23,283 nt of DNA, taken from the NCBI GenBank assembly GCA_016839785.1, contig JAEOTQ010000123.1, positions 1 through 23,283 of the forward strand, given 5' to 3'. A program made the position numbers and the translations under genes. Source of the stretch: Candidatus Hodarchaeota archaeon (GTDB taxonomy: Archaea > Asgardarchaeota > Heimdallarchaeia > Hodarchaeales > Hodarchaeaceae). The notes below the pieces were generated by a model, which ran no database searches, was not told the DNA's origin, and saw nothing but the letters and a program-made list of their open reading frames with translations. Shown here piece by piece: positions 2,349 to 19,683 of this stretch; the first letter of the stretch is position 1, and every line of letters starts with the position of its first letter.

Positions 2349-2480
2349 CATCTAATCTGGAATGACAATCATCATTATATTGAAGAAGGATAATCAATAT
2401 TATAAAAGAACTAAAATCAAATTATTCCTGCATAAATTTACTTAGAATCGAATAAATCTTGATCCTCTGGATTGTAGGAC

Positions 2481-4637
2481 ATGGAGAATAAGTATCGTAT
2501 GCTAGAAATCAAAGCTCCGAACATAAAACATTTATTTGAACCGAAATCAATTGCAATCATCGGTGCATCATCGAATCGAAATAAAATTGGCTATAAAGTA
2601 GTCGATAATATTGTAGCATCAGGTTATCAAGGAAAGATTTATCCCGTTAATCCAAAGGGTGGAACAATCCTTGATTCCAAAGTTTACACATCAATAGAAT
2701 CAATAGATGATACGATTGATCTTGCCACTATCTGTGTTCCAGCAAAATACGTATTTGATTCATTAAAGAGTTGTGCAAAGAAGAAAACAAAATTTGTTTC
2801 AATAATTACTAGTGGTTTTTCTGAAATTGGAAATCTAGAAGGGGAGGAAGAATTAGTTAATTTTGCCAGAGAGAATGGAATGCGATTGCTTGGTCCAAAT
2901 ATCTTCGGAATTTTCTCTGCTAAAGCACCTGTAAACGCCACTTTTGGTTACAAGCACATTGAACCCGGATCAGTCGCTATTGTCACACAATCAGGAGCTC
3001 TGGGAGTAGCGATGATTGGTAAAACTGCTACTGAGGGAATCGGACTATCAGCGATCGTTTCAGTCGGAAATAAGTGTGATATTGATGAAGCTGACCTGAT
3101 TGAATATTTCATCACTGATGATAATACTCGAGTTATTTTATTATATATTGAGGGACTTAAACGTGGGAATAGACTGACACAAGTTCTTGAAAAGGCCACA
3201 AAAATCAAACCCGTTATCATCATAAAATCGGGCAGATCAAAACGTGGTGCAATGGCAGCTGCCTCCCATACTGGATCATTAGCAGGAGCAGATAATGTTT
3301 TCACCGATATAATTTCACGACAAGTTGGCGCGTTAAGAGCTTTAAGTGTACAGGAAGCATTAAACTGGGCTAAGTTTTTAGCTATCCAAAAAAGTCTTCC
3401 AGTAGGAGAAAATGCTGTTATAGTCACGAATGGAGGAGGAATAGGTGTTCTTGCGACCGATGCCTGTGAATTATATGGTGTAACTCTTTATGATAATCGA
3501 GAGGTTTTGAAAGAAATATTCTCTCCCGTAACACCCTCTTTTGGGTCAACTAAGAATCCTGTTGATATTACTGGACAAGCCTCCAACGAAATATATGAAC
3601 AAGCTCTTCAAGCCGCTTTAGACAGTCCTGATATTCACTCAGTAATCGTTTTAGGTTGTGAAACCGCAATATTTTCTGCAGATCAATTAGCTGCCGTTGT
3701 ACAAAGAAGGTATTTAGATGATAAGCCTGACAAACCCGTAGTTTTTTCATTTTTTGGAGGAGGTGAATTTGAGCAAGGATTGTTTGCTTTAAAATCGAAA
3801 GGAGTGCCGATTTTTTCTGATGTTTATGAAGCAGCTAGTTGTCTAGGAGCTTTGTATAAACATTATCACAACATCATAAATACTGATGATGAATTGTCCG
3901 AGTTAGATGACCCTGAAATTGATATAAAATCCATTCAAACTGTAATCGACGAAGTGCGGGCCGATAATCGACGTTTTCTACTAGTCCCTGAAGCTTTGAG
4001 GGTTATGAATGCTGCGGGAATTCCGACACCAAAAAGTTATGTGGCTAAAGATCTCGAAGAAGTTATTTATTATGCAGAGGAAGTTGTGAAGTATCCAGTT
4101 GTCATGAAGATCGTTTCCAAGGATATTATCCACAAATCTGATGCTGGCGGAGTAGCTCTTGATTTAGAAAATCGTGATGAGCTTTTGGATGCATATGAAG
4201 CAATTCTTGCCTCAGCTCGGAAATATAAACCTGATGCAAAAATTGAAGGGGTGGAAATCGTCCGAATGATCAATATGAATGAAGCGATGGAAACTATAAT
4301 TGGTGCAAGGATTGATAATACGTTTGGTCCAACCGTTATGTTTGGATTAGGCGGTATTTATGTAGAAGTACTAAAAGATGTTGCTTTTCGGGCAGTTCCA
4401 ATAAAACGATCGGATGCCATCGAAATGATACAACAGATACGCTCATATCCATTATTACTTGGGGTTCGAGGGGAAGAAGCCAAAGATATCGGAGGATGTA
4501 TCGACATCATTCTCCGATTAAGTAAGATTATACAGTTATGTAAAGATATTTCTGATATTGAAATCAACCCAGTATTAGTATTTGAACAGAATCAAGGAGT
4601 CCTAGCAGTAGATACTCGTATCTTGTTAAATCCCTAA
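2481..4637 (+). CDS. ADP-forming acetate/acyl-CoA ligase, alpha-beta fusion (CoA-binding + ligase + ATP-grasp)
   Basis: LFEPKSIAIIGAS CoA-binding fold, LLGPN, TQSGALG, phospho-His motif AASHTGSLAG (H263), TNGGGIG and NPVDITG. The ATP-grasp domain shows YPVVMKIVS, HKSDAGGV, FGPTVMFGLGG and EINP. Confidence 0.93.
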   Translation: MENKYRMLEIKAPNIKHLFEPKSIAIIGASSNRNKIGYKVVDNIVASGYQGKIYPVNPKGGTILDSKVYTSIESIDDTIDLATICVPAKYVFDSLKSCAKKKTKFVSIITSGFSEIGNLEGEEELVNFARENGMRLLGPNIFGIFSAKAPVNATFGYKHIEPGSVAIVTQSGALGVAMIGKTATEGIGLSAIVSVGNKCDIDEADLIEYFITDDNTRVILLYIEGLKRGNRLTQVLEKATKIKPVIIIKSGRSKRGAMAAASHTGSLAGADNVFTDIISRQVGALRALSVQEALNWAKFLAIQKSLPVGENAVIVTNGGGIGVLATDACELYGVTLYDNREVLKEIFSPVTPSFGSTKNPVDITGQASNEIYEQALQAALDSPDIHSVIVLGCETAIFSADQLAAVVQRRYLDDKPDKPVVFSFFGGGEFEQGLFALKSKGVPIFSDVYEAASCLGALYKHYHNIINTDDELSELDDPEIDIKSIQTVIDEVRADNRRFLLVPEALRVMNAAGIPTPKSYVAKDLEEVIYYAEEVVKYPVVMKIVSKDIIHKSDAGGVALDLENRDELLDAYEAILASARKYKPDAKIEGVEIVRMINMNEAMETIIGARIDNTFGPTVMFGLGGIYVEVLKDVAFRAVPIKRSDAIEMIQQIRSYPLLLGVRGEEAKDIGGCIDIILRLSKIIQLCKDISDIEINPVLVFEQNQGVLAVDTRILLNP

Positions 4638-4643
4638 AGGTGA
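4638..4643 (+). promoter_or_regulatory. Ribosome-binding site AGGTGA
   Basis: AGGTGA lies immediately after the ligase stop codon and 6 nt before ATG 4650, supporting operon linkage. Confidence 0.65.
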
Positions 4644-4649
4644 AAAAAA

Positions 4650-5696
4650 ATGAAAAGAATTGTGGTAGCTTCCACTCATAAAGAAGCAGGTAAAACCAGT
4701 TTAATGATAGGTATTGCAAAAGCTCTTTCTAAAAAGGATATTTCATGCGGATACATGAAACCTTTAGGAGACAGGTTGCTTTATCAAAAGAAACGTCTCT
4801 GGGACTATGATGCCTCTTTAGTTTCTAGTATTTTAGATCTTAAAGAAAAACCTGAGGATATTTCACTAGGTTTCGATCATAGCAAGTTACGTTTTATGTA
4901 TGATGAACAATCGACAAGTAAGAAGCTAAAAGAACTCTGTGATAAAGTTAGCAAAGATCATGACGTGGTTCTAATTGAGGGAGGAGAAAATCTAGCCTCG
5001 GGTCATTCCGTATATTTAGATCCGATAACAATAGCAAATAATGTCGATGCGCAGCTCTTGTTAATATTGAGTGGTGAAGGAAGTGAGATAGCTGATGAAA
5101 TTGGATTTTTAAGGAAATGTGTCCTCTCTGATCCAAATATTCTTGCAGGAGTCATAATCAATCAAGTAAGGGATATTGAGGAATTTAATAATATATACAT
5201 GGGAATTTTTGATGAATTAGAAGTCCCAGTTTTGGGAATTATTCCCTATGAGGACACCCTAGCTCATTTTACAATCGATTATCTCTACAAGACATTATTC
5301 ACTAAAGTGATCGCAGGAGAAGGGGGATTAATGAATGTGGTAAATCACATTTTCGTTGGAGCGATGAGTGCTGCACAAGTAACCTCAAAACCGCTGTGGC
5401 AGTATGAAAACAAATTGATAATCACTCCAGGTGATAGAGTAGATATGATAACCGCTGCATTAGATTCTAGTACAGCAGGAATTGTTCTTACAAACAATAT
5501 TCTACCTGATGACCCAATAATTCATTCTAAAGCTGATGCTAGGAATATTCCCATTCTTCTGGCAACTAATGATACTTTTGCTGTTGCGAAGCTAATTGAT
5601 GACATGGAAATTCTCTTTACTAAAGATGAGATACAGAAAATAAACATCTTAGAAGAACTTGTAAAAGAACATGTAAACTTAGACTTTCTGAACTAA
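4650..5696 (+). CDS. Phosphotransacetylase N-terminal-like protein (BioD-like P-loop/AAA_26 + DRTGG domain), without the catalytic PTA domain
   Basis: N-terminal STHKEAGKTS P-loop, GYMKPLG, DVVLIEGG and GVIINQV. The C-terminal part has DRTGG-type motifs VGAM and LIITPGDRVD. It begins 12 nt after the ligase gene. Confidence 0.88.
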   Translation: MKRIVVASTHKEAGKTSLMIGIAKALSKKDISCGYMKPLGDRLLYQKKRLWDYDASLVSSILDLKEKPEDISLGFDHSKLRFMYDEQSTSKKLKELCDKVSKDHDVVLIEGGENLASGHSVYLDPITIANNVDAQLLLILSGEGSEIADEIGFLRKCVLSDPNILAGVIINQVRDIEEFNNIYMGIFDELEVPVLGIIPYEDTLAHFTIDYLYKTLFTKVIAGEGGLMNVVNHIFVGAMSAAQVTSKPLWQYENKLIITPGDRVDMITAALDSSTAGIVLTNNILPDDPIIHSKADARNIPILLATNDTFAVAKLIDDMEILFTKDEIQKINILEELVKEHVNLDFLN

Positions 5697-5855: not shown

Positions 5856-6875
5856 ATGAATAGGAAAGAAACAACCAAAGCATTAACTGATGGATTAATT
5901 ATAACAGTATTCGAAGATGAAGGTCCTACAAACATTTACAACTCCTCTCCTTTAGCTGATGACGAAGCTTTTACCATGGCAATAAAAACGTTAACCGCAA
6001 TTGGTACAAGTCAGCCTTTTAATCCAGGAGAAATACGAGCTTACGGCCCGATTCCAACCCCCAAAGATCCTTATATATCGGAAGCTTTCATGTTTTCTTT
6101 AGCAGCAAAAGATTCTATGGACAATAGAATTGCTCAATTCGGTCGAATGATTTTCTTCTGGATTATTACTACTTCAAATTCAATAAGTAAGTACACTGAA
6201 TTCCTGAAGCTCATGGTTAAAAGAACGCTTCGGGTCTATAACATAGTAAATGACAAAGATCTATATAATGAAGAGATTCTAAAGAAGATAGACGAAAATA
6301 TTCAGATTATAGATTCAGGCATTGATGCCTATTACTTAACCGAGGCAGAGACAATCGAAGCCTTTGGAAATATCTCAATGATACCTGAAAACTCAACAAT
6401 TCTGCTTGTCACTCCAGAAAAATCTCAGATTCAAGTGATATTCCGTGATCAACCAACTCCAATTGTAAAGACAAAAGTGCGGAGTATTGTGGATGAATTC
6501 AAAAAGAAAATGCCAAGAGGAAGTCTGTACAGGTTAGAAATAGTGACCGATCCAATCATGGGAAAACAATTACTCTCAAAGTCTGGATTGGAATCACAAG
6601 CGGATATGGGGCTTCAATATCGACTTAGACTTTCAGGAAAGCTCGATTTTGAAGAACTAGATCAATTTTTGACCTTACCCGTAAAGAAGATTAGAGGTGT
6701 ATTAGCCAAACGGATTCTGGATGCTTTTAATAACAAATCCTCCCTAGATCTGACTTTACTGGCCTCAGAGGTTGGATTTTCGGAGAAATTCATAATCGAA
6801 GTCCTTCAACTTGCGATTCAAACAAATGTGATGTCGGGGTGTAAAGTTGAGGGAGGCCTTCTGAAATTTGATTAG
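5856..6875 (+). CDS. Longin/uDENN-like domain protein with a possible gelsolin-like middle domain and a C-terminal PCI-like winged helix
   Basis: 339-aa ORF. N-terminal GLIITVFEDEGP hairpin, then a helix, then AFMFSL-[loop DSMDNRIAQFGR]-MIFFWII, matching the longin strand/helix order. The C-terminus SLDLTLLASEVGFSEKFIIEVLQLAIQTNVMSGCKVE fits a PCI/winged-helix pattern. The CDS is confident; the domain calls are by eye. Confidence 0.6.
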   Translation: MNRKETTKALTDGLIITVFEDEGPTNIYNSSPLADDEAFTMAIKTLTAIGTSQPFNPGEIRAYGPIPTPKDPYISEAFMFSLAAKDSMDNRIAQFGRMIFFWIITTSNSISKYTEFLKLMVKRTLRVYNIVNDKDLYNEEILKKIDENIQIIDSGIDAYYLTEAETIEAFGNISMIPENSTILLVTPEKSQIQVIFRDQPTPIVKTKVRSIVDEFKKKMPRGSLYRLEIVTDPIMGKQLLSKSGLESQADMGLQYRLRLSGKLDFEELDQFLTLPVKKIRGVLAKRILDAFNNKSSLDLTLLASEVGFSEKFIIEVLQLAIQTNVMSGCKVEGGLLKFD

Positions 6876-6891
6876 AACTCGTGAACCATGC

Positions 6892-7830
6892 TTATAATAA
6901 TTCACTGACGATTTCTGCAAGTTTTTCCATTTTAACAAGTACATACTGAAGAGGAGAAACTTTGCGGGCAATTCCAGCTAGAAAGATTTCTGTTTTGATT
7001 TGTTGAAATACGAACATATAGTCATTGGTTTCTAAAGTCGTTTTGAAGTTATTACCCGGAAAATCCCCTCTGAGTCGTTCATAATTTGTCAACCATAAGT
7101 TCGCAGGAAGAATAATTTTATTTGCTAAGTCACCTTCTTCGAACACTGGCAGTCCATCTTCTGAATAAATAGCAATACCCGATAATTCTGCATTCTGTCT
7201 AACAAATTCTTGAATGGCCTCAGAAACAGTTTTCGCTTTGATACTTTTGGTAATAAGCGTCTGAACCATCTCTCCCACAACGGCGAATGTTGATTGATCG
7301 TATATTGAGGTTCCTCGATAAACTATTTTGATGTCTTTATCACTGGTAAAAAATGACTCCATTGTTTCAATAACTTGTTCACGCATATCTAATAACAGTA
7401 GATCAATTTTATGAAATAAACAATATATTACAGCATCAGGAGAATATTGATATAGTCTATTTACGGCATGATCAAAATAAAATTTTGATGTAGAAACAGC
7501 ATCAAAATTAGAAACATCTACAACCCAGACAAGTATGGATACATTACTGAAAATGAATTCAGCTTGATCTCCTACGAATACTGAGATAAAAGATTCTTGG
7601 CCTCCGCAATCGAAAATTTGAAAGGCAGAATCGATAATATTACGAGTAGAACGAGTATAATTTATCGTTGCATTATAATCCTTTACATCGTCAAGGGATT
7701 TTCCCTCAAATACGATGGATCGGATACTACTTTTTCCACTAGCTCCGAGGCCCATAAATAAAATCTTTGATACGGGTGTTCCAGACATTTTTAAAGGTTC
7801 CTCTAATGTGATTCTCTTGTGATAATCCAT
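6892..7830 (-). CDS. Rag (RagA/Gtr1-like) small GTPase with C-terminal roadblock domain
   Basis: G1 GLGASGKSS followed by IRSIVF, switch I ATINY, G3 DCGGQ, IFSNV, SPDAVIYCLF, Rag-type G4 HKID and G5 TSIYD. Residues about 201-312 show a roadblock pattern (helix, GIAIYSEDGLPV, helix, three strands, helix). An alternative start is ATG 7788. Confidence 0.92.
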   Translation of the reverse strand: MDYHKRITLEEPLKMSGTPVSKILFMGLGASGKSSIRSIVFEGKSLDDVKDYNATINYTRSTRNIIDSAFQIFDCGGQESFISVFVGDQAEFIFSNVSILVWVVDVSNFDAVSTSKFYFDHAVNRLYQYSPDAVIYCLFHKIDLLLLDMREQVIETMESFFTSDKDIKIVYRGTSIYDQSTFAVVGEMVQTLITKSIKAKTVSEAIQEFVRQNAELSGIAIYSEDGLPVFEEGDLANKIILPANLWLTNYERLRGDFPGNNFKTTLETNDYMFVFQQIKTEIFLAGIARKVSPLQYVLVKMEKLAEIVSELL

Positions 7831-8048: not shown

Positions 8049-10316
8049 TTGGAAATCCTAAAAAGAAACATTCACAAAGAAACATTAGAAGCGGTACATC
8101 GTATCAATGAACACAAGGTCGTCGTTATGTCAGAATGGGTATCTGAAGCAGAGATTAATTCCCGTTTAGGTCACAAAATCCTCATTGCTGGCCTTTCAGA
8201 AGCGGGAAAAACCGCAGTTAAACGGATCTTCTTTTTAAAACAACGCACTGAAGACGTGAACAAACTCTCAGCCACGATAAATTACGAGAGATTATCAGTT
8301 ACTGTAAAAGACACTCCAATTACCATTGTGGACTTGGGTGGCCAGAAAATTTTCCTAAAAAAGTTCTTAAGTGCCTTTAGTCCATTTGTATTCAGTAATG
8401 TGAAGATTTTTATCTTTTTAATTGATACTGCTAATAAAACTACCCGGAATAATGCTTTTCAATATTTTAAAGCTTCAATTGAGAAACTAATAAATTACTC
8501 TCCTGAAGCTGAAGTTTTTGTTTTTTTACATAAGAATGATCTTGTACGAAATTCTCCTAATTATGAATCGGTACACACGCAACTAAAAGAAAGTTTTCAA
8601 CTCGAATATAGTGACCCTCTTCGCTTCTTTAGAACTTCTATTTTTAAGCCAGAATCCGTGATTGATGCTTTTGGTCGTATCTTCGAACTTGCGGTTCCTG
8701 ACATTGCACAGAGTGATTTTGTTGAGGGAAGGACTATTGGTGAAATTGAAGAATATCAGAAGAAAGGGATGACTCTTCGGAAAGTTAAAGCCAAAGTTAA
8801 GACACCAACAGAAACTAAAATTCAAATCAAAGCTCCTAAAATGGCAGGTGATCCTGCTGTCCTGCAACGTTTACAATCACTCATGCAACAAGCAACTGGA
8901 AGTGCGGAAGGAGTAAGCCCTCCCTCACCCTCCCTACCACCAGCACCAACAAGTACACCTAGTCCTGTAAAGGTAAAAACAACCCCAGAAGTAAAACCAA
9001 TAGAACCTAGTGTTGAACCAATAAAAAAACCTTCGGAAATACCTCCAAGCCCTGCTATTTCGCAAGAGACGGAACCAGTAGAGGCACCATCCTCTTCTGA
9101 ACCTGAAATAATCGTAACTTCAGAAATCACTGAACCAGAAACACCTAGTGATGCTGAAGAGGTGGTAAATCAAATTGTTTATCTTGTGGAATTTTGTGGT
9201 ATAGAACCCGATGAAGCAACTGAAGTAGTTAAATCAGGATATGGGGAATTATTTAAAATTGCCGCTTCCTCAGGAATTCCAGTTCCATTACTGAGTGAAT
9301 TTTTTCTAAAATATATTCCTTTTGTTCGAACCTCACAAGGAGAAGACAAATTCAAGAATTTAACGGGTCAAAGATTACTGGATATCTTTTCTGCTCATCT
9401 TAAAAACGAATTAGATGAAGAAATGATTATCAAATGTCTAGTTATTGCAGTAGAAAGACCAAAATTGGCAATAGACGAAATCGTCAGTAAATATTTAGCT
9501 CCCAAGATAGAGGAGAAAGAAAAGAAAGAAGTTAAGAAAAAGCCAACAGTCATACCAACGGAAATACCAGTTCAGACAGAAACCGTTGATGGAACTATTG
9601 CTTTACCTGGAGCAAGAGGAATTAGTTTTAAAGTGGAATTGATCGAAGACTCCTCAAACGTGCAAATAAGTCTTTATCTTCAAAATCATTCAGGTAAAAA
9701 AGGAGTAATCGGTAGCTCTCAAATCCCTCTTGGCATAAATGAAGATGAGATTCTCTATTTACTTGCTTACGAAATGAATCTAGCTAATGTCGGTTATTAT
9801 GAAGATGGAATCTCCTCAATGGCATTTTCAGCAAGAGTTATTTTTGAAGCTATTAAGAAGTTGAATGAACAACCCCTTGTTACACCCCCAATGGAGAAAG
9901 GAAGTTTAGCGGAAACTATTGATTATATAATTCCATTAGAGATCAAAACAAATGGAGAATTCGTAATTCTTCCCGACACTGATAAATTAGGTTTTTCAGT
10001 GGAACAATCTCAGAAGAAAGGAGTATTAATTAATTTTGTACAACGTGGTTATCCCATTGGAAAAGTTAACGTTATTGAAACCGTTAGTCCAACCCAATTA
10101 AGCGGACTAATGACTCAAGTCATGCAGTTACCTATAGAATCAACTAGTGCCGTGGATTTCGCAGCGCGGATGATAAGCATAATTATCAAAACTTTAGTCC
10201 AAAGTAAAGAGACTAAATTTCCACGAAAAGGTGAACCAGTACAGAAAGAAGTGAAAGAGGATGAAGAAACGTCTCAAAAATTAATCCACTATCTTTCTCT
10301 ACTTGAAAGCGATTAG
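8049..10316 (+). CDS. Multidomain Rag-like GTPase (N-terminal G domain, Pro-rich linker, helical region, two copies of an unknown alpha/beta domain)
   Basis: G1 GLSEAGKT, switch I ATINY, G3 DLGGQ, VFSNV, SPEAEVFVFL, G4 HKND and G5 RTSIF. A Pro/Ser/Glu-rich linker spans residues about 291-366, and an internal repeat occupies residues about 502-605 and 624-716. The start is TTG 8049 or, more plausibly, ATG 8127 (AAGGT just upstream). Confidence 0.88.
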   Translation: MEILKRNIHKETLEAVHRINEHKVVVMSEWVSEAEINSRLGHKILIAGLSEAGKTAVKRIFFLKQRTEDVNKLSATINYERLSVTVKDTPITIVDLGGQKIFLKKFLSAFSPFVFSNVKIFIFLIDTANKTTRNNAFQYFKASIEKLINYSPEAEVFVFLHKNDLVRNSPNYESVHTQLKESFQLEYSDPLRFFRTSIFKPESVIDAFGRIFELAVPDIAQSDFVEGRTIGEIEEYQKKGMTLRKVKAKVKTPTETKIQIKAPKMAGDPAVLQRLQSLMQQATGSAEGVSPPSPSLPPAPTSTPSPVKVKTTPEVKPIEPSVEPIKKPSEIPPSPAISQETEPVEAPSSSEPEIIVTSEITEPETPSDAEEVVNQIVYLVEFCGIEPDEATEVVKSGYGELFKIAASSGIPVPLLSEFFLKYIPFVRTSQGEDKFKNLTGQRLLDIFSAHLKNELDEEMIIKCLVIAVERPKLAIDEIVSKYLAPKIEEKEKKEVKKKPTVIPTEIPVQTETVDGTIALPGARGISFKVELIEDSSNVQISLYLQNHSGKKGVIGSSQIPLGINEDEILYLLAYEMNLANVGYYEDGISSMAFSARVIFEAIKKLNEQPLVTPPMEKGSLAETIDYIIPLEIKTNGEFVILPDTDKLGFSVEQSQKKGVLINFVQRGYPIGKVNVIETVSPTQLSGLMTQVMQLPIESTSAVDFAARMISIIIKTLVQSKETKFPRKGEPVQKEVKEDEETSQKLIHYLSLLESD

Positions 10317-10338: not shown

Positions 10339-10935
10339 TCAATCCTCATCATCTTCAATAAGATCAGTAGTCCCATAGATATTGACATAACTCAAAATTA
10401 TGGCACTGACGTATTTACGAACTTCATTAGCTTTAACTCTGATAAGCACCTTATTTCCAGAATCACTGGCCATTGTCATATGGAAATTATGCACTTTTTC
10501 TTGAATCTCATCTTTAAATTGTTCAACAAGGTTGAAAATATCCTTATGGACGAGAATATTCATTGTAAGGTTTTCTTGCCCACCACGTGCGTCTGGTTTA
10601 TCTAATGCAAATCCAAAACTCATCACACTAATCCGGAGTTGTTCACCCAGAACAAAATCATATGAAGATGGAACTTCGCTAGTATAATCATCACTAAACC
10701 CTGTTCCACTGAATGATCGATCAGAGAGTGCAACTAATTTACTATAATTATCTTTCAGCATCTCAGGAATGACAATAATTGGAATTGGCCCATGTAACTG
10801 GTCGAAAAAGCTGACAACTAGTCCTAGAGTATGTCTATCAACATCAGCAATGATTTCCTCTTCGTCTACATCTGCTACACCTTTCATTACTAGTTCCTTA
10901 TCAAGTCCGACAATCTCTGGTTTTCGGATAAAGCG
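10339..10935 (-). other. Cytoplasmic longin/uDENN-like domain of the giant protein
   Basis: About 198 aa after the TM helix (10936-10995). LGLVVSFFDQLHGPIPIIVIP (FDQLHGP at 10786-10806) and SVMSFGFALDKPDARGGQENLTMNILV (Arg3033 codon at 10585-10587). Confidence 0.78.
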
Positions 10936-13900
10936 AACATAAACAATTGCGCCAATAAATATTAGAAAAACAGCAAGTCCAGCAAGCATTAGTAGCTCAG
11001 GTGGGAGTCCTCCAGGCTGAAATGAGATAAGTTCAATACGTTCAGGATGGTTTCTAATATCAAACGCATTTGGATTGCTATTTCCTGCAACATCAGATGT
11101 AGAAACAAAAAATAGTGGTTCATAGTCATTTCCATCTTGAATATATTCAACAGAGACTGTATAAATCAGGGTTTCACCCTCAGTTCTAAGATATGACATT
11201 TCTAGTGGGATAAATTCATTGTCTTCTTGGACGATGGAGGATCCATCTCCCTCAGATTCAACGAGATTTAAATAGTAATATAGCACAACACTAGAAACTC
11301 CAGACCCATATTCTTCAATTGCAGCATAGAAAGTGAGATTAGTGGGATTAGGGTCGATATCTTTCTCATACCAGACACCAGAAGAACCACCAGTCGTTTT
11401 TATTCTAGGGGCCACACCATCAATCAATGTGAAATTAAATGACGCAATGGTTGTAACTCCGATAATAGATTGAGCAGTAATTGTAATAATGGCGGATGTA
11501 TTAAAATAAGTACCATCAGCATAATCTAGTAACTCAAAGACAAAGAACCAATGAGTAGCATTCCCATCTAAGAAGCCAGTCTTAACTAGTGTTCCTGATT
11601 TGTTCAAATGCACATCATATCGTCCAAGAAGGATATCATAATCCAATGCATCAGTCATTTCGATAGAAAATATGAAAGTTCCATCAATTTCCTCTTTCAC
11701 TATAGTTGTTGTGAAATTGTGGATTTTTGGACGACTTTCAATAAAGAGCGAGAAAAAAGCAAAGCTAGTGGCATTATCAAATCCATCTGAGGCAAGGATT
11801 GTTGCGTTCCATGTATCGCCTGCCTGTGTTGCATTGCTAGGAATTGTGTGTAGATTATCATACAGCGAATTATACACGCCATTTACTGACCAGGTGATAT
11901 AAGATAACTCGGAATCTCCTGTATCTACATCAAATACAGAAATTGAGATGCTAACGTCTTCACTCTCAACGAAAAATCCTATATATTCATTTCCAGTCAA
12001 AGTAACTGAAATAACAGTTGGTGCTTTATTCACGATAGTTATATTCTGAGAAGTTTGATTTAATGAATACACCACTAAGTCATCAGTAATTTGTACCTCA
12101 ACATACCAATAGTCTCCTTTGAAAAGTACCGAACTGGGTAAGAGGGCTGCATTGTCAAAACTTGACTGATGGATTCCATTTCTATACCACCGTGTAATCG
12201 TACCGAAATAAAGAATGAAATCTCCATCGACATCAGTGTAATTAACACCATCAAAGAAATCAATCTCAAGATTCGTATCAGCATACGTCTCAGAGGTATT
12301 TCCACTATCACTTATTATTGCTACTGAGATAATTATAGGTGGAGTATTCTCTACTATAAGTGGGGCAGATATTTTGGGGTCTTTACTCCATTCCATCCCA
12401 TCAAAGACAAAAATTTCAACTGTCCACACATCACCTTTACTAATAATATCTGAAAGAATCGAACTCTGATTTTCAAACATAGGCTGAGGAATTCCCTTGT
12501 TTTTCCAGATAATCTTTGCGAGCGATGTCACTTCAAGATCATTATCTGGATCTGAATATAACCAAGAGACATTTAGATTATCAGTTGTATAAGCTGTAGT
12601 ATCAGTTCCATTAGGCTGCAGGTTTACATTAAAGGCATAAGGTCTCGCATTCCCAATAATCATACCAAAACTTGTATTTGATTGAAGTGCCCATTCAGTA
12701 CCATCATGTGGTTGAACTTCTACTGTAATGTTGTCTCCTCTAATGTAGTGATCCGAGAATAAGCGAATGACTACAATATACTCATTCCCGACCTGTTCTG
12801 TAGATATAACCGTAATTTCTGTACCCACAATAAGAGTACTATAATTATACCATTGAATAATTGTGTTTGAAAGATTGATAGGATCTCCGTCATAATCTGA
12901 GTAAGTAAACTCAATGTCAAGATTCATGTCCGAAGTGGTGTAAGGGTTAACCTCACGAAATTCGCTAATGAGAGGTCGACTATTCGTAATAATGATAACC
13001 GTTGAATTTACCCACGGACCAAAATCTCCGAAACGGTCACGTGGTTTAACACTTGCTTTCCACTCGTCACCACGTACCAGATATGCTATTGGTACTATAT
13101 GTGTATTGAGTTCAGAAACCTTGTTACCATTTCGGTACCAACGATATTCTGCTCCTACCACATATCCATCAGGATCGTAATCTATATTATACAATGGACT
13201 ACTTTCACCAAAATCTGGATCTGTAGCAGTATAGTTGAGATGAAGCTCATCAGAAGCGTAAAAATCTGTAGTATTTTCAGGACCTAGAATATTTGGTTGT
13301 CCTGAAATTGTAGGAATGGCATTACCAATTATTAATCTTGTTCTATACGGTTGCCAAGTCACACCAAGACTTTCTCCATCATGAGGTGTGATTTCTACTG
13401 TTACAGTATCACCTGCGACAAAGTACGTATTGCTTAATGTCCACACTCCATCAACAGATAAATTACCTCCAGAAGCAAATTCAATTGTCCAATTAATTTT
13501 TGTTTGCCCCAAATTAATTAGATCACTATCCAAATCTGTATAAGAATAACCAATTCCAATATCCTCTAGTGTATCAGCTCCTCCCGATAATGAAACACTA
13601 TCGAACGACATTAGAGAGTTTAAAACCGTGATAGTCTCTGAGGTTTTATTAGCAGACCAATTAGTACCATCAAAAATCCTAAGTACATATTTCCACGTTT
13701 CTCCTTTCTTTAAATATGAGGAGGGAACTTCTGTTTCATTATATAATCCCACTATTTCTTGACTACCATTAATCCACACAACGGAAATTGTAATAATACT
13801 ATCCTCGTCTATATCAGTTCCTTGATAGTTTATTAATAATGTACTAGAGGTATATACGTTTGTAGCTGGAAAAATTTCCGCTGTTACTACTACTGGAACA

Positions 13901-16900
13901 GTATTAAGAATTATTATAGGTTGACTGGAATTCCACTCTCCATAATCGTTTTTATTATCTTGAGGTCTGACTTCTACTGTCCAATTATCACCTTTTATTA
14001 GAGTAGCAGTAAGAAGATTGCGAATACCATCGAATTGGGGTTGATAAATTCCATTCTTATACCAACGAAAAGTCGTTAGAGATTCACTATCGCCTTCAGG
14101 GTCGTAATAAGTATAATTCGCATATAAAGATCCTCCAGCTACTGGATTACTTGAGGTTAAATTAACATAAAACGCGCTAGGCGCCTGATTAGGGGCAACA
14201 CCGATACTAATTGTGGCAGAGGAGGTCCATTCACTATAATCTGTCCCATCATTTACCCACATGTCTACACGCCATAATTCAGATGTATTTGTTGAGGTAG
14301 ATAATATTGTGAAAGTACCATTAACAACTGACTCGAATTTCCCAGTTGTCAAATTGAATCGCCACCAGCGGATTTCTAAAGATGTAAGGTTAATGCTATC
14401 TCCATCTACATCTGAATATTGATAGGTAGCATCTAAATCTGTGTCATTAGCAACTGTTGCTGGTTGAGCATTATCATTAAGTTTAACAATTAGTGTGGGA
14501 GGTGTATTAAGGATAGTTATGGTTGTAGAAGTGTATGTATTTCCTAATCCGATTCCGTCTCCAGGAGTTATTGTAAAATAAAATTGGTCACCCTTTGTGG
14601 TCTCATTTTCTGGAAGCTGCAACAAATCATTATACTGACTAAGAAGTAGAAAGCCAGATCCATTTCCATTATCCCTATACCATCTGATTTGACTTCCTGT
14701 TTCGGTATCTCCAGAATCAACATCTAACCAGCTATATTCAGCAACCAAGGTTGAATTTGTTGTAGGCATACTTGGACTTATCACAGTACCGAAAGCGATA
14801 GGAACAGTGTTTTCAATAGTGATATTACCTGAAATATACCAATCACCAAAGTCTTTTCCATCATTAGGTCTAAATTGTACTCGCCATACATCGTCACGAG
14901 TCAGTGCTCCAGCTGTGATATTGTTCAAATCATTATAAGCGGATTGAATATTCCAATGTGTATCATTCCATTTTTCCCACCGAATCTCTGATCCAGATTC
15001 TGGATCAAGTTCAGCATCATTGTAAATATACAAAAAGTACAAGGTGTCATTACTAGTCACTGGTAGCAAAACAGAGGAAGAATTCTGAGACAAGTTTAAG
15101 CTGGAGGCCTCTGGTGGCGTGTTTAGGACAAATCCTGGATGTTCTGATGAAGTGAATGAATTTCCATATGTATCATTTACGGTAATAACAAAATTCATCG
15201 TCCCCTCAATCATTATAATAGTATCGTTCTGGAATCCAGAGGCTGTATTCTGCATGATTGCCCATAGTGAACTTGTGTCAGCCATGTTTTCATGGTAAGT
15301 TACATTAATTATTACAGTGTCAATTACTCCCCAAGTGTCAGAAACATTAGCTTTAAATTTCTTCGTTCCTGAATAGTAATCCCAGTCTATCACACCAGGT
15401 AAAATAGAATCATAATAAAAAGTGATATTCTTTTCTATTGAAGCAATTGTTAAGTAATTCCCAACAGTATCTGAAGCATTAACTATTTGATAATCGTAAT
15501 AATCTCCATAAGAAACTCCAACTGGTTGATAAATCCAGAATCCGCTTCCATTTTGACTCATTAGATAATATGTCCCATTTAGATTGAGAGTGACGCTTGA
15601 CACTGAAGCATCATGGTCAGTTACGTTCGCCCAAAAAATTGGTTGCCCATCACCAGGATCATCTATACCAAAATCGATTATGACTGGAGCAGCATGGTCA
15701 TTTTCAGAACTTATGGTTAACAATGTACTAGAAGGTATTTGGTTTAGGTAAGTTAATTTCAACCAATCAGTTGATCTTGCAGTTCTAGAGAGGCGAATTT
15801 CATCAAGAAAGCCATCCCATATTTCGTTTGGCCAACCTTCATTATAACCGATATAGAGTGGATTTGAGTTACTCTCCAGTGATAAAATTCCTTCACCAAA
15901 ACTTGAAGCACTTAAAATACCGTTTTTATAAACTCGAATTGTTTCTCCATTATATGTAACTGCGACATGGGTCCATGTTCCACTAGTAACGCTAATTCCA
16001 GTGTTCCAATCTACTCGTATTGGATGTAAGCCAATATAAAGATTGGTATTATCTAGTACAAAATAGAGATGTTCTGTTTGACCATCCATTTTTGAAATGA
16101 TGGTTTGCCACACACTTGTAACATCAGGGTTAATCCAAGCAGAAACAGTCAAAAATGTATCATACCGAAGGCTGGGATCATCTGCAATACTTATATAGTC
16201 ATCTACAGCAACATCACCATCTAAACGAATACTAGTTCCAGCTACTCCTAGAGTACCAAAGGTTGGAGATCCGAAATCAGTACCTGTGTTATTATTAGAA
16301 GTTGCATCCTTAATAGCATCAGTTCCTCCACCCAACTCATCGAGATGCCAAGATGCACTGTAGAGATCATCCCACACTGCATCTGGGTTTTGCTGATTGC
16401 CAATTGTTGAATTTCCGTAATACATTGAGATAATAGTGTTACTTGATATAGAAATTCTGGGGATATTGATGTGAGCTAATAAATGCGCGTGGGTGGCATT
16501 AAAGTCCTGATCAAAGGTCATATCATGGTCTAATTTCCTTCCTATTGTATCATAAAAAACAATATCGTCAGCGTCAGGTTGAACATCTGTTTTTAAATCA
16601 GAATCATAAATATCTAATGATAATGGAAAGTTAAAGATATCTTTATCTCTTGTGTAAGTAATCTCGGCATATAGCTGAGTAATTCTCAATTCCACTACAG
16701 TCTCGGTCTGGTTATAATCGATGTATCCTCTTACACCAATTTCAAGATCTGAAAGATCATCCCAAGACCAAGGTTGGCCAGTGACAGGATTAGTACTCCA
16801 TGCATCAGAGTAAGAAGTATAACCTGTACCAGCCCAACGTGAACTTCCATAGTAATTCACCGATGTAGGTCTTACGAAAACACGAATATTTGAAGAAAAT

Positions 16901-19683
16901 ACCGACCCAGTTCCCGAAACTGCCCTTCTTCTAACCCGACTATGAAGGGTAATACTTGTAATACTTCCGCTAAATTCGTTTTGGAGGCCTTTAAGTTTGA
17001 ATGAGCTATAACGATTTGAGGCATCAATGGAACTGTAGATAAAACTCCCATCATCATCTGATTCTACCTCATCGACTGCTAGATAATCCTGTACTACACC
17101 AAACCGATTATAATGATTCCAAGTTTGTGTATATCCCGGTGCCCATGGTCTCATATTTACATTCTCATCTGTTTGTCCTAATTGTCCACTGTCAATAATA
17201 ATATCCTTTTTTCTTCCATAAGATTCAGCTAACCACCAGTTGCTATTTTCAACCTCGCTAGCAACGCTATAGAAGCTACTAGGATCGTCTAGATTTGTAA
17301 ATTCTGTTGCGATATGATCTGAGGATAACAACTGTTGTGAAAAACGGATGTCATCGATCTTACCATCAAAAAAGTCAGAATTACCTGAAGTTGCACCAAG
17401 TGTAAACGGTGCAGAAGTTACGAATCCATTCATCCAGAGTAGGGAAGCACCAGCTGGTGGCCCATATCCCTTTTTTATGGCAGTATCGTTTGTACCATCT
17501 ATAAATAGGTTCCAGTTTGATGTGGATACTCCTGTATCAAACGTAATCGTAAAATGATGCCAACTTCCGATCATAAGGTTGAAGTTGGATATTGAATTCA
17601 GGAAATATCCGTCATCATCATCGTCTGATGCAATAAAATAGAGTTTACCATCTGTTTGATTAATGTATAATGTATAGCCCGTGAAATCATCTATATCGCT
17701 TTGAGTCTTGTCTATGATTACATCAGTATTAGAGGAACTAGCTCGATAAATCCATCCAGATAAAGTGTAAAGATATCCAACTCCCGAGTCAGTGTTTAGT
17801 TCATTAAGATCTAAGATATCAATATCCCCCATCTCCACATAATCGTTTGTACCATCAAAATTTTGTGCAGTGCCAACTACTCCAATTGAATCATCATTTC
17901 CATGTTGATTACCATGATTAGTATTTGCAGTAGAATCAGTGTGAGCATTTACTGCTGTACCCTCATCATTTACGGACTCATCGAGGTGCCATACACCGAG
18001 ATAATCATTCCAAACTGTACTCGGACTATGATAGCCATAATTCGCTTGATTTCCATAATACAGGGTAATAAGAGTATCAGTATTAGCATATAGGGTATCT
18101 ACTTGAACCCAAACACGTAAATGAGCATGTGTGGTGTTGAACAGCTGGTTCCATTCCTCAACCTCATAATAAAGCTCTTTAGTTGTACCTTGATTTTTGA
18201 ATACAAGATTATCACCACTACTTTGAATTCTCCCATCTTTACGAAGATCAGTATCATAAATATCAAACAAAACATTGATCTGTGAAAGATCGCTACTTCC
18301 AGAAACTTTAGTATTATCAATTACTAAATCTTTTCTAAATCTGTAAAGTTCTGATGAAGGAGGTTCTTCTAGCGCACCTACTGAATAGAAAGAGTAAGGG
18401 GAATACTGATTGTTAAATTCTGTGCCTATCCAATTTGCCGAACGGGCAACATTTGAAAGCCGCACTTCATCAATTTTTCCATCATAATACCGATCATCTG
18501 CCCCAGTATTTACATTAGCTAAAATAACGGGTAAAGTTGAATCATCAATAGAATCTCCATCTTTAAAATAATTGTTACTATCTTGTGATCCATCAATGTA
18601 TAAATAAATTCTTTCTGAAGCACTATCCCATGTGAAAGCTACATGATGCCATGTACCAGTCGTGAATGTTAGGACAGAGTCTCGACTGATAGCTGCAGAT
18701 CCTCCAATACCATCTGTTGATAATCGAACTCTCAATCGATCATTTGAACCACTATTGACTACAGCTAAGGATATGATATGCTCTGCTGTTACTCCAGATG
18801 GAGATTTGCAAATAATACGATCATCACCAGTTGTATCATGGAAAATCCATGCTTGAGCAGTAACCCCAGTCCAAGAATTCGAATTTACATCTCCAATGTT
18901 TATTAGATCATTTGATCCATCGAAATCTATACTTCCATCAAAGATTCCTTCTACTTGATCAGAACTTGTCATAGAACCTGTTGATGTTCCATCATTATTA
19001 TTAGCGGTACTATCATAGATTGTTCCCGTCGGATCTTCACTTAGATGATATATCCCCTCATAATTATTAGCCCATACTCCAGTTGGATTAGCTTGATTAG
19101 GAATTGTGTCGTTGCCGAAATACATAGAGATTGTGGTATCTGTTGAACTTAATAGATCCGTTTTAACCCATGCAATTAATCGGGGAATTTCCTGTTCAAA
19201 ACTTTCGACTTCATGATCAAGTTTATTACCACTCGCATCTGTGAACATTATATCATAACCAGTTGATTGACGTACCCCGAAAAGATCCTTATCTCCATAA
19301 AGATCAATCAATACAGGAAAATCATTCAAATTTGCTAATACTTTAGACGAATCAATTGTTAAATTCTTTCGAAACATGAACCCCGCTCCACCCCAAGTAG
19401 GAAGAGAGAAACTGTTTACAATTTTTGACGACGCGATAGATACGGGATTAATTTCCTTTTTTTCATCAAAATTGGCTAGATCTACAGATGTTAAACGTGG
19501 AACCGAGGATTTCAGACTATCCTCATTTTGTACTGGAATCCCTAATCCTCGTAACAAGTCTGCAGTGAATCCTTCAGCTTCCCCTCCTAATACACTATTG
19601 AGGTTAATCATTAAAGTAAAAACGTTTAACGTTAAAATAGTTAATAACACAATATGTCGTAATTGAAATATTCTAAGTCTCAT
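10339..19683 (-). CDS. Giant single-pass surface protein (3114 aa): signal peptide, 3x(DUF2341+LamG), Ig/cadherin-like stalk, TM helix, cytoplasmic folliculin/SMCR8-like longin domain
   Basis: Uninterrupted 9.3-kb ORF with a basic/hydrophobic N-terminus. Three DUF2341-like units (RK.L.ID..., FP...D, DI.F.D..G.KLDH) are each followed by LamG (FDG..D, W.H....T, DG.IDE.R.S). Eleven NxxP/DxDxD repeats follow, with many NxS/T sequons. The TM LLMLAGLAVFLIFIGAIVYV is followed by RFIRK, and the tail contains FDQLHGP and DARGGQ. Confidence 0.9.
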   Translation of the reverse strand: MRLRIFQLRHIVLLTILTLNVFTLMINLNSVLGGEAEGFTADLLRGLGIPVQNEDSLKSSVPRLTSVDLANFDEKKEINPVSIASSKIVNSFSLPTWGGAGFMFRKNLTIDSSKVLANLNDFPVLIDLYGDKDLFGVRQSTGYDIMFTDASGNKLDHEVESFEQEIPRLIAWVKTDLLSSTDTTISMYFGNDTIPNQANPTGVWANNYEGIYHLSEDPTGTIYDSTANNNDGTSTGSMTSSDQVEGIFDGSIDFDGSNDLINIGDVNSNSWTGVTAQAWIFHDTTGDDRIICKSPSGVTAEHIISLAVVNSGSNDRLRVRLSTDGIGGSAAISRDSVLTFTTGTWHHVAFTWDSASERIYLYIDGSQDSNNYFKDGDSIDDSTLPVILANVNTGADDRYYDGKIDEVRLSNVARSANWIGTEFNNQYSPYSFYSVGALEEPPSSELYRFRKDLVIDNTKVSGSSDLSQINVLFDIYDTDLRKDGRIQSSGDNLVFKNQGTTKELYYEVEEWNQLFNTTHAHLRVWVQVDTLYANTDTLITLYYGNQANYGYHSPSTVWNDYLGVWHLDESVNDEGTAVNAHTDSTANTNHGNQHGNDDSIGVVGTAQNFDGTNDYVEMGDIDILDLNELNTDSGVGYLYTLSGWIYRASSSNTDVIIDKTQSDIDDFTGYTLYINQTDGKLYFIASDDDDDGYFLNSISNFNLMIGSWHHFTITFDTGVSTSNWNLFIDGTNDTAIKKGYGPPAGASLLWMNGFVTSAPFTLGATSGNSDFFDGKIDDIRFSQQLLSSDHIATEFTNLDDPSSFYSVASEVENSNWWLAESYGRKKDIIIDSGQLGQTDENVNMRPWAPGYTQTWNHYNRFGVVQDYLAVDEVESDDDGSFIYSSIDASNRYSSFKLKGLQNEFSGSITSITLHSRVRRRAVSGTGSVFSSNIRVFVRPTSVNYYGSSRWAGTGYTSYSDAWSTNPVTGQPWSWDDLSDLEIGVRGYIDYNQTETVVELRITQLYAEITYTRDKDIFNFPLSLDIYDSDLKTDVQPDADDIVFYDTIGRKLDHDMTFDQDFNATHAHLLAHINIPRISISSNTIISMYYGNSTIGNQQNPDAVWDDLYSASWHLDELGGGTDAIKDATSNNNTGTDFGSPTFGTLGVAGTSIRLDGDVAVDDYISIADDPSLRYDTFLTVSAWINPDVTSVWQTIISKMDGQTEHLYFVLDNTNLYIGLHPIRVDWNTGISVTSGTWTHVAVTYNGETIRVYKNGILSASSFGEGILSLESNSNPLYIGYNEGWPNEIWDGFLDEIRLSRTARSTDWLKLTYLNQIPSSTLLTISSENDHAAPVIIDFGIDDPGDGQPIFWANVTDHDASVSSVTLNLNGTYYLMSQNGSGFWIYQPVGVSYGDYYDYQIVNASDTVGNYLTIASIEKNITFYYDSILPGVIDWDYYSGTKKFKANVSDTWGVIDTVIINVTYHENMADTSSLWAIMQNTASGFQNDTIIMIEGTMNFVITVNDTYGNSFTSSEHPGFVLNTPPEASSLNLSQNSSSVLLPVTSNDTLYFLYIYNDAELDPESGSEIRWEKWNDTHWNIQSAYNDLNNITAGALTRDDVWRVQFRPNDGKDFGDWYISGNITIENTVPIAFGTVISPSMPTTNSTLVAEYSWLDVDSGDTETGSQIRWYRDNGNGSGFLLLSQYNDLLQLPENETTKGDQFYFTITPGDGIGLGNTYTSTTITILNTPPTLIVKLNDNAQPATVANDTDLDATYQYSDVDGDSINLTSLEIRWWRFNLTTGKFESVVNGTFTILSTSTNTSELWRVDMWVNDGTDYSEWTSSATISIGVAPNQAPSAFYVNLTSSNPVAGGSLYANYTYYDPEGDSESLTTFRWYKNGIYQPQFDGIRNLLTATLIKGDNWTVEVRPQDNKNDYGEWNSSQPIIILNTVPVVVTAEIFPATNVYTSSTLLINYQGTDIDEDSIITISVVWINGSQEIVGLYNETEVPSSYLKKGETWKYVLRIFDGTNWSANKTSETITVLNSLMSFDSVSLSGGADTLEDIGIGYSYTDLDSDLINLGQTKINWTIEFASGGNLSVDGVWTLSNTYFVAGDTVTVEITPHDGESLGVTWQPYRTRLIIGNAIPTISGQPNILGPENTTDFYASDELHLNYTATDPDFGESSPLYNIDYDPDGYVVGAEYRWYRNGNKVSELNTHIVPIAYLVRGDEWKASVKPRDRFGDFGPWVNSTVIIITNSRPLISEFREVNPYTTSDMNLDIEFTYSDYDGDPINLSNTIIQWYNYSTLIVGTEITVISTEQVGNEYIVVIRLFSDHYIRGDNITVEVQPHDGTEWALQSNTSFGMIIGNARPYAFNVNLQPNGTDTTAYTTDNLNVSWLYSDPDNDLEVTSLAKIIWKNKGIPQPMFENQSSILSDIISKGDVWTVEIFVFDGMEWSKDPKISAPLIVENTPPIIISVAIISDSGNTSETYADTNLEIDFFDGVNYTDVDGDFILYFGTITRWYRNGIHQSSFDNAALLPSSVLFKGDYWYVEVQITDDLVVYSLNQTSQNITIVNKAPTVISVTLTGNEYIGFFVESEDVSISISVFDVDTGDSELSYITWSVNGVYNSLYDNLHTIPSNATQAGDTWNATILASDGFDNATSFAFFSLFIESRPKIHNFTTTIVKEEIDGTFIFSIEMTDALDYDILLGRYDVHLNKSGTLVKTGFLDGNATHWFFVFELLDYADGTYFNTSAIITITAQSIIGVTTIASFNFTLIDGVAPRIKTTGGSSGVWYEKDIDPNPTNLTFYAAIEEYGSGVSSVVLYYYLNLVESEGDGSSIVQEDNEFIPLEMSYLRTEGETLIYTVSVEYIQDGNDYEPLFFVSTSDVAGNSNPNAFDIRNHPERIELISFQPGGLPPELLMLAGLAVFLIFIGAIVYVRFIRKPEIVGLDKELVMKGVADVDEEEIIADVDRHTLGLVVSFFDQLHGPIPIIVIPEMLKDNYSKLVALSDRSFSGTGFSDDYTSEVPSSYDFVLGEQLRISVMSFGFALDKPDARGGQENLTMNILVHKDIFNLVEQFKDEIQEKVHNFHMTMASDSGNKVLIRVKANEVRKYVSAIILSYVNIYGTTDLIEDDED
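11737..15123 (-). repeat. Eleven degenerate ~100-aa cadherin/Ig-like protein repeats
   Basis: Units start NTPP, NTVP, NTPP, NQAP, NTVP, NSLM, NAIP, NSRP, NARP, NTPP and NKAP. Each contains Y..D.D.D, a conserved W (for example IRWY.NG), GD.W.V.V.P.DG and a terminal I.I strand. The repeat is visible at protein level only. Confidence 0.85.
15739..19380 (-). repeat. Three tandem DUF2341 + LamG/concanavalin-like modules
   Basis: Repeated blocks FRKNLTID / FRKDLVID / RKKDIIID; ISMYFGN / ITLYYGN / ISMYYGN; YHLSE / WHLDE / WHLDE; YDGKIDEVRLS / FDGKIDDIRFS / WDGFLDEIRLS. Confidence 0.85.

Follow-up and report, generated by a model that had tools for sequence, protein, structure and literature searches.

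We analyzed a 23,283-nt stretch of DNA from a Hodarchaeales-like Asgard archaeon (contig JAEOTQ010000123.1; hereafter the window). Its longest open reading frame (ORF) encodes a giant protein of 3114 amino acids (aa), predicted from its sequence to be a single-pass surface protein with a cytoplasmic C-terminal tail, and close to it lie genes for two Rag-like GTPases (Rag755 and Rag312) and for a conserved hypothetical protein, unk339 (Table 1). A sequence-only reading of the same DNA had likened a 27-aa segment of the tail to the loop of folliculin (FLCN) that bears a catalytic arginine finger, and had proposed that the tail is a GTPase-activating protein (GAP) with Arg3033 as its catalytic residue. 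According to the structural model of the tail, this segment spans strand β4, the loop after it, and strand β5 of a longin domain that is predicted to be cytoplasmic and is of the FLCN/NPRL2/SMCR8 type, and Arg3033 is nearly invariant among its archaeal relatives.

Table 1. Features of the giant surface protein gene and its neighbors, with positions in the window.
Feature	Position	Strand	Basis
Giant single-pass surface protein gene (predicted), 3114-aa ORF	10339..19683	minus	longest ORF of the window
Predicted transmembrane helix, aa 2897-2919	10927..10995	minus	mean Kyte-Doolittle 2.74 over 19 aa
Predicted cytoplasmic C-terminal longin domain, aa 2945-3114 (fold ~2952-3103)	10342..10851	minus	AlphaFold2 model, fold search
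Gly2965-Pro2966 "GP motif", start of strand β2	10786..10791	minus	alignment and AlphaFold2 model
β4 + ARG loop + β5, aa 3019-3045	10549..10629	minus	translation, AlphaFold2 model
Arg3033 codon, candidate arginine finger	10585..10587	minus	β4-β5 loop in AlphaFold2 model
Rag755, 755-aa long Rag-like GTPase	8049..10316	plus	Pfam Gtr1_RagA 1.1e-30, 107.3 bits
Rag312, 312-aa Rag/Gtr1-like GTPase	6892..7830	minus	Pfam Gtr1_RagA 8.9e-37, 127.2 bits
unk339, 339-aa conserved hypothetical protein	5856..6875	plus	AlphaFold2 pLDDT 78.9

The translated giant protein has a hydrophobic N-terminus, resembling a signal peptide or an anchor, and its N-terminal 1300 residues contain matches to Pfam Laminin_G_3 (2.3e-54; three stretches, ConA-like) and DUF2341 (3.2e-15); beyond these residues there were no Pfam matches. 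From about aa 1300 to 2850 (window ~11000 to 16000, minus strand), the ectodomain was seen to be a series of ~95-residue repeats, in which W...DG.D...W motifs recur and N-x-S/T sites are numerous; these repeats match no Pfam model and are common to many members of the family described below. Basic residues (RFIRK) stand on the tail side of the transmembrane (TM) helix, and the tail comprises the C-terminal 195 residues.

An AlphaFold2 (AF2) model of the tail, made with a 35-sequence alignment, reached a pLDDT (predicted local distance difference test) of 93.2 and a pTM (predicted template modeling score) of 0.88, and displayed the longin topology β-β-α-β-β-β-α-α, with strands at tail residues 8 to 17, 21 to 28, 60 to 68, 72 to 84, and 92 to 102 and helices at 30 to 50, 103 to 129, and 134 to 159. 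In this model, the Gly-Pro pair (tail residues 21 and 22) is placed at the β1/β2 turn, with β2 occupying residues 21 to 28, and Arg3033 is tail residue 89, between strands 72 to 84 and 92 to 102, so that it lies in the β4-β5 loop as the sequence-only reading had expected. NPRL2 R78 is the arginine grouped with FLCN R164 and SMCR8 R147. SMCR8 R147 lies in the βL4-βL5 loop of the longin domain and is equated with FLCN R164 in the available text of 10.1101/2020.04.16.045708. The GP motif is located, in the accessible part of PMC12290439, in the loop before the second strand or at its start; it is described there as present in C9orf72, SMCR8, FLCN, and NPRL2 and absent from FNIP2, NPRL3, adaptins, TRAPP, and DENND proteins. 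With an Arg in the β4-β5 loop and a Gly-Pro at the start of β2, the modeled tail thus has both signature positions of GAP longins.

The model was compared exhaustively with 48,161 chains using VIA, in which longins took the highest ranks, with Foldseek as a second search. The best solved neighbor was 8yqg_B, a Lokiarchaeota longin (Z 14.7, root mean square deviation 3.1, 141 residues aligned, 12% identity), followed by 6nzd_H from the lysosomal folliculin (FLCN-FNIP2) complex (Z 12.6, root mean square deviation 2.6, 135 aligned, 16% identity), the Lst4 longin 4zy8_C (Z 12.0), 7o2w_A from C9orf72-SMCR8 (Z 11.8), 8fw5_B from GATOR1 (Z 11.6), 8adl_S from the SEA complex (Z 11.1), 6lt0_B from C9ORF72-SMCR8-WDR41 (Z 10.7), and 6ulg_N from FLCN-FNIP2-Rag-Ragulator (Z 10.0). 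Lower scores were recorded for DENND1A (Z 9.3), TRAPP (9.0), VAMP7 (8.6), subunits of the AP adaptors (7 to 8), and Mon1-Ccz1 (7.1). Foldseek yielded the same set of neighbors at E values of 1e-4 to 7e-3 (6ulg_N, 1.2e-4; 8dhb_J, 5.6e-4). As modeled, the tail is structurally nearer to the longins of GAP complexes (Z 10.0 to 12.6) than to generic longins (Z 7 to 9), a comparison made between complexes, since VIA names entries rather than subunits and nearness to the Arg-bearing subunits is not told apart from nearness to their partners.

At the sequence level, the segment was as the sequence-only reading had given it. The translated minus strand contains exactly the claimed peptide, SVMSFGFALDKPDARGGQENLTMNILV, as residues 3019 to 3045 of 3114, and the numbering of Arg3033 was right; read on the plus strand, the same interval has a frame with a stop and does not encode the peptide. 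Conservation was scored in 104 aligned tails, that is, the query and 103 full-coverage relatives drawn from 137 cluster representatives with E ≤ 1e-3. An Arg occupies position 3033 in 103 of the 104, the lone exception being P0133, the weakest full-length member. Around it runs a P-x-A-R-G-G-x-E-N motif, of which P3030 is found in 99 rows, A3032 in 89, G3034 in 92, G3035 in 93, E3037 in 100, and N3038 in 96. The GP motif is equally well kept (G2965 in 104 of 104, P2966 in 103, with GA in P0090 as the exception), and P2968, P2973, F2960, F2991, and R3089 are identical in all rows. The conservation of the Arg3033 loop is far above chance level. A variable Arg, or one outside the β4-β5 loop, had been named in the sequence-only reading as speaking against its proposal; the residue was found to be near-invariant and inside that loop, so neither was the case.

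The likeness to folliculin fared less evenly. Among the residues that had been called identical to FLCN, F3025, A3032, R3033, and G3034 are conserved in the archaeal family, whereas V3020 (33 of 104) and Q3036 (29 of 104) are variable. The Pfam model Folliculin (PF11704) matched 5 of 35 tail relatives in one scan and 5 of 40 in another, below threshold in each case (E 5.2e-4 to 8.8e-3; 16.3 to 20.3 bits, the cut-off being 23.3), and was the only Pfam family matched by more than one relative in these scans. The five include two paralogues from the window's own genome. Each match begins at β4, passes through the ARG loop, and extends into the next helix, and all five put the Arg at about profile position 61 if the first 15 to 19 residues are taken as gapless. 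Since these matches cover the very segment that had been picked, the perceived likeness of the ARG segment to FLCN probably reflects true homology that is only just detectable; it is seen in the relatives, while the window's own tail stays below significance and is also without a match in NCBIfam. Neighbors in the ESM Atlas, which we treat as leads only, were an archaeal cluster in which 19% of the members carry NPR2 (0.88), a LST7/Folliculin cluster (0.81), and a C9orf72/NPR2 cluster (0.76).

The distribution of the tail was examined by searching its last 170 residues against 1.84 billion representatives, which gave 137 clusters at E ≤ 1e-3, including 119 at E ≤ 1e-10. The whole domain was covered in 103 of the 137 matches, and in every one of these it ends 0 to 15 aa from the C-terminus. 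Full-coverage proteins are 166 to 4285 aa long (median 940), and partial matches extend to 5809 aa. A TM-like segment precedes the domain by 24 to 35 aa (median 30) in 91 of the 99 relatives with at least 70 aa upstream, the remaining 8 being short soluble proteins, and ectodomain similarity to the window's protein was found in 62 of the 83 members that have 300 aa or more ahead of the TM segment. None of the 137 representatives carries a GTPase domain. Named members that were looked up are all annotated "hypothetical protein" and come from Hodarchaeales, Kariarchaeaceae, Hodarchaeota, or Promethearchaeota metagenome-assembled genomes (MAGs). Within the phylum, tail matches at E ≤ 1e-5 were present in 43 of 301 sampled genomes. 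Among them are 18 of the 20 other genomes belonging to the same genus, where as many as 10 matches occur in one genome, and, with weaker matches, 15 of 29 and 4 of 11 genomes in two further families of the same class, with only 4 elsewhere. As a side observation, a tail-type longin ends open frames of 10,431 and 10,069 aa (G062:C193:39751-40209 and G102:C10:124939-125388), and some members of the family are among the largest archaeal proteins.

The two neighboring GTPase genes are divergent, with a 218-bp spacer, and the Rag755 gene is convergent with the giant gene, their stop codons lying 22 bp apart. HKxD in G4 is typical of Rag GTPases. Both proteins score above the Gtr1_RagA gathering cut-off of 22 bits and carry a P-loop, a DxxGQ motif, and HKxD in G4, and both are thus of the Rag/Gtr type. 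For Rag312 (motifs GLGASGKSS, DCGGQE, and HKID), the sequence matches in the Protein Data Bank (PDB) were Gtr1 (1.3e-27) and RagA (4e-25); for Rag755 (GLSEAGKTA, DLGGQK, and HKND), the nearest were RagA/Gtr1 (5e-19). In Rag755, the G domain (about aa 40 to 220) is followed by a linker rich in Pro, Ser, and Glu and then by a helical domain, and the C-terminal domain is duplicated; the helical stretch (aa 353 to 495) has a weak NCBIfam match to GatE (E 8.9e-6). By eye, the protein ends in two similar domains instead of a canonical roadblock. Its G domain is 62 to 100% identical among the 120 Asgard homologs listed, out of 172, and the homologs are mostly annotated "ADP-ribosylation factor-like protein".

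The association between tail and Rag-like genes was followed in 20 related loci from other genomes; those from named records are all Asgard MAGs, mostly labeled Hodarchaeota or Heimdallarchaeota. A giant gene with both a Rag755-like and a Rag312-like gene was found in L008, L009, and L010, where the tail is 83 to 89% identical and the 339-aa gene is also present in synteny, and in L024, where the tail is 60% identical; L019 and L020 combine the giant gene with a Rag755-like gene only. In L026, a Rag pair lies 6 kb from a 489-aa tail protein, and in L018, a Rag-like gene sits between two tail genes. In total, a Rag-like gene was near a tail gene in 8 of the 20 loci. In the window's own genome, which has about 13 strong Rag-like genes in 4.04 Mb, a Rag-like gene lies no more than 6 kb from the tail in three of six tail loci (contigs C78, C211, and C41).

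The third neighbor, unk339, matched nothing in Pfam or NCBIfam, and for its 44 homologs every name given by the source is "hypothetical protein". Its AF2 model, in contrast, contains an N-terminal longin of the same topology as the tail, with an invariant G23-P24 at the start of β2 and invariant D89 and R91 in the β4-β5 loop. The closest folds to this longin were 8yqg_B (Z 10.5), 4zy8_C (Lst4; 10.4), and 6nzd_H (10.1), with adaptor longins near at 9.5. Residues 155 to 244 appear gelsolin-like (7c2f_D, Thorarchaeota ProGel, Z 9.1), and residues 274 to 339 resemble a winged helix (8b9x_B, Z 9.7). By analogy with FNIP, NPRL3, and C9orf72, unk339 is a candidate second longin subunit. A soluble 340-aa protein from a Promethearchaeota MAG, P0052, fuses a 339-type N-domain (35% identity, E 3e-18) to a tail-type longin; as this is the only such fusion among the 137 family representatives, a "Rosetta stone" argument from it is thin. 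The idea that the two longins are detectable paralogues was dropped, since hhalign found no relation between them (E 0.084 over 11 columns).

Some further observations concern these longins and the Rag-like genes. The combination of longin and gelsolin-like parts in unk339 could link GTPase control to actin. A 315-aa ORF on contig C204 of the window's own genome (7222-8166, minus strand) has weak matches to hidden Markov models of both the tail longin (4.9e-4) and the 339 family (1e-8) and may be intermediate between the two longin types. On contig C129 of that genome (10611-14385, minus strand; 17729-18658, plus strand), three Rag-like genes stand on the same strand with a 269-aa longin of the 339 type between them and a fourth Rag-like gene 3 kb off, forming an operon-like Rag and longin module. 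The gene module of the window has a second copy on contig C41 (24160-27078), where an 86-aa tail remnant accompanies a 339-aa-type gene and a Rag312-type gene (E 6.5e-108); the remnant holds the C-terminal half of the tail domain only, with an in-frame TGA nearby, and is probably decayed or truncated.

Several comparisons with known systems can be drawn. As modeled, the tail shares with FLCN/Lst7, NPRL2, and SMCR8 a five-stranded longin with an Arg in the β4-β5 loop and a Gly-Pro at the β1/β2 turn; the eukaryotic longin GAPs are its best eukaryotic structural neighbors (Z 10 to 12.6), and, as for them, Rag-family GTPases are its likely clients, judging from the gene neighborhood. Unlike FLCN and SMCR8, the tail has no C-terminal DENN domain, since the giant protein stops 11 residues past the last longin helix. 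Yeast Lst7 is likewise longin-only, according to the text available for 10.1101/2020.04.16.045708. The eukaryotic GAPs are soluble and recruited to the lysosome, whereas the tail is predicted to be the C-terminal end of a 3114-aa surface protein; they also work with a second longin (FNIP/Lst4, NPRL3, or C9orf72), and for the tail such a partner is only a candidate. To our knowledge, no longin-based GAPs have been established besides FLCN, GATOR1, and C9orf72-SMCR8. The Lokiarchaeota Roadblock-Longin protein of 8yqg resembles the tail in being an Asgard longin and was crystallized as a dimer; it differs in that its longin is fused to a roadblock domain, whereas the tail sits on a membrane protein, and there is no detectable sequence similarity between the two. 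Our literature search yielded no publication that describes the Roadblock-Longin structure of Lokiarchaeota or the LokiRagM structure. Bacterial MglB, a roadblock GAP, offers a further parallel, as a small α/β platform of the roadblock/longin superfamily whose target, a small GTPase, is encoded nearby. It is a roadblock rather than a longin, however, and roadblock chains reached only Z 6 to 7 against the tail; MglB, as far as we know, supplies no arginine finger.

A model of tail, GTPase, and GTP had been suggested in the sequence-only reading as a way to see whether Arg3033 reaches the γ-phosphate. Co-folding of the tail with the G domain of Rag755 (aa 25 to 235), GTP, and Mg lent weak support to the pairing: the score was 0.39 (runs 0.39, 0.49, and 0.13) compared to 0.01 for the best of three controls. 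Of 157 solved complexes, 116 attain the pass mark of this test, as do 2 of 215 mismatched pairs; passes at ≤0.60 comprise only 18 of the 157 solved complexes and both passing mismatches. The runs agreed in at least 18% of contacts, and the pLDDT of the partner was at least 78. This modeling raises the odds that tail and GTPase bind a little and has no bearing on the direction of Arg3033.

We regard the tail as a putative arginine-finger GAP for a Rag-like GTPase, a reading to which we give about an even chance; GAP activity of the tail is plausible and stands as a prediction. In such a mechanism, the tail, tethered some 30 residues from the membrane, would bind a Rag-like GTPase (Rag755 and/or Rag312) at its G domain, and would probably do so as part of a longin dimer formed with itself or with unk339. 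Arg3033 would then be given in trans to the γ-phosphate, so that the tail would act as the GAP, and the variable giant ectodomains would couple cell-surface events to the nucleotide state of the Rag-like GTPases.

A number of findings weigh against the GAP reading. Unlike FLCN and NPRL2, the window's tail has no significant Pfam match to Folliculin or NPR2 (PF06218), with no family at all at E ≤ 10; neither phmmer with the tail nor the 35-sequence tail profile reached FLCN, SMCR8, or NPRL2 among the PDB chains, and the 27-aa peptide had no match to these chains at E ≤ 10. Arg-bearing subunits and non-catalytic partners are not told apart by the fold search: Lst4, an orthologue of FNIP according to the text available for PMC4703059, matches the scores of the other entries with its Z of 12.0. 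The co-fold gives a score only and a pass of the weak class, with no model placing Arg3033 at the nucleotide, and, because longin-Rag complexes have already been solved, the pass may stem from a resemblance to these. The role of a conserved Arg at the surface could be in binding instead of catalysis. In the neighborhood, genes alternate in strand and do not form an operon; 12 of the 20 related loci are without a Rag-like gene in the available DNA, 9 of them with at least 3 kb downstream; a paralogous Rag pair on contig C79 of the window's genome has no adjoining tail gene; and the syntenic loci come from closely related genomes and are thus not independent.

Part of this evidence would also suit a tail that binds a Rag-like GTPase without catalysis, either anchoring it at the plasma membrane as a platform or serving as a guanine nucleotide exchange factor (GEF), in the manner of Ragulator, TRAPP, Mon1-Ccz1, or DENN proteins, with the conserved Arg and Gly-Pro used for binding or folding. 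We consider this somewhat unlikely, as a minority possibility. The Rag neighborhood and the weak docking fit a platform as well as they fit a GAP, the fixed tether of 24 to 35 aa from the TM helix suits an anchor, DENND1A, TRAPP, and Mon1-Ccz1 are among the fold neighbors, and the non-catalytic, partner-type Lst4 ranks level with the other GAP-complex longins. Longin and roadblock domains are, moreover, mainly GEFs and platforms and only occasionally GAPs, according to the available part of PMC10933270. What favors catalysis is that the entries of GAP complexes stand 2 to 3 Z units above the GEF longins and that the GP motif, absent from non-GAP longins in the portion of PMC12290439 at hand, is kept near-invariantly in the tail together with the loop Arg.

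It is improbable, in our judgment, that the longin has nothing to do with GTPases and serves dimerization, sorting, or another partner (for instance the cytoskeleton, through the gelsolin-like neighbor), as the SNARE and adaptor longins do. VAMP7, Ykt6, Sec22, and the AP sigma/mu longins do occur among the fold neighbors (Z 7 to 8.6), and the dimeric state of the best solved neighbor, the loci lacking a Rag-like gene, and the lineage-specific expansion of the tail on surface proteins would all suit such a role. The fold, however, is nearer to the longins of GAP complexes than to those of SNAREs or adaptors, and the repeated adjacency of Rag-like genes, the weak docking support against clean controls, and the sub-threshold Folliculin matches point the same way. 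We hold it very improbable that the ARG tripeptide merely resembles the FLCN loop by chance, in a domain with no specific tie to folliculin-type longins. A tripeptide match is weak on its own, two of the claimed identities (V3020 and Q3036) vary in the family, and significant sequence matches to FLCN-family models or chains are lacking for the window's tail; yet the Arg and the Gly-Pro are conserved in 103 to 104 of 104 tails at the two positions that define GAP longins, the top fold neighbors are GAP complexes, and five co-linear Folliculin matches put the Arg at one profile position.

Asgard longins of this kind have been described before. In the available text of 10.1101/2020.10.19.343400, Liu et al. 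describe longin-DENN proteins of Heimdallarchaea that are FLCN-like, as well as NPRL2-like longins that are abundant among Asgard archaea, some of them fused to two-component domains. According to the accessible part of PMC12290439, 15 Asgard longins, including some from Heimdallarchaeia, keep the GP motif and the arginine finger, and shared ancestry and possible GAP activity are proposed, with Rag/Gtr or ArfR as candidate partners. The tail resembles these published FLCN/SMCR8-type longins in its likeness to GAP longins and in keeping both the GP motif and the Arg. The suggestion in the sequence-only reading that a longin arginine-finger GAP predates eukaryotes is accordingly not new, being already in print in the available text of PMC12290439 and prepared by that of 10.1101/2020.10.19.343400, and catalysis is so far a prediction. 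The portions of these two papers available make no mention of a giant membrane-anchored form or of a conserved Rag-like neighborhood. In our literature search, we did not find a longin described as the cytoplasmic tail of giant single-pass surface proteins, although the sequence set of PMC12290439 might include a member, nor did we find a report of such longins with a conserved place next to a pair of Rag-like genes and the gene of another longin. The new part is the receptor-like architecture together with the linkage to Rag-like genes; the general longin-GAP idea is known.

The target GTPase of Asgard longins is a question raised in the available text of PMC12290439. In MK-D1, according to the text at hand of PMC10933270, the genes of GTPases as a rule do not share operons with those of longins, and GTPases are rarely paired with regulators by gene order, so that partners are hard to match. 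The locus in the window gives a concrete and testable pairing in the lineage nearest to eukaryotes, in which a putatively membrane-tethered FLCN-type longin with its Arg is kept across related genomes together with a pair of adjacent Rag-like GTPases and another longin. Should the tail prove to be a GAP, arginine-finger catalysis by longins on Rag GTPases would predate eukaryotes, and its first site would have been the cell surface, with receptor-like proteins as its carriers, instead of an internal organelle. In its widest form, the proposal is that receptor-like giant proteins of Hodarchaeales-like archaea use FLCN-type tails as arginine-finger GAPs on the Rag-like pair, maybe with the soluble longin-gelsolin-winged-helix protein, and represent a forerunner, at the plasma membrane, of the FLCN/GATOR1-Rag axis of lysosomes; the nucleotide state of the Rag GTPases inside would then be set by whatever the ectodomain encounters outside. 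Taken as a whole, we think this scenario unlikely.

Elsewhere in the window, an acetyl-CoA cluster on the plus strand (447-5696) encodes a 633-aa fusion of acetyl-CoA hydrolase/transferase and GNAT and a 718-aa protein similar to ADP-forming acetyl-CoA synthetase. The same cluster includes a 348-aa protein with AAA_26 and DRTGG domains, whose gene is syntenic with the longin and Rag genes in L008 to L010.

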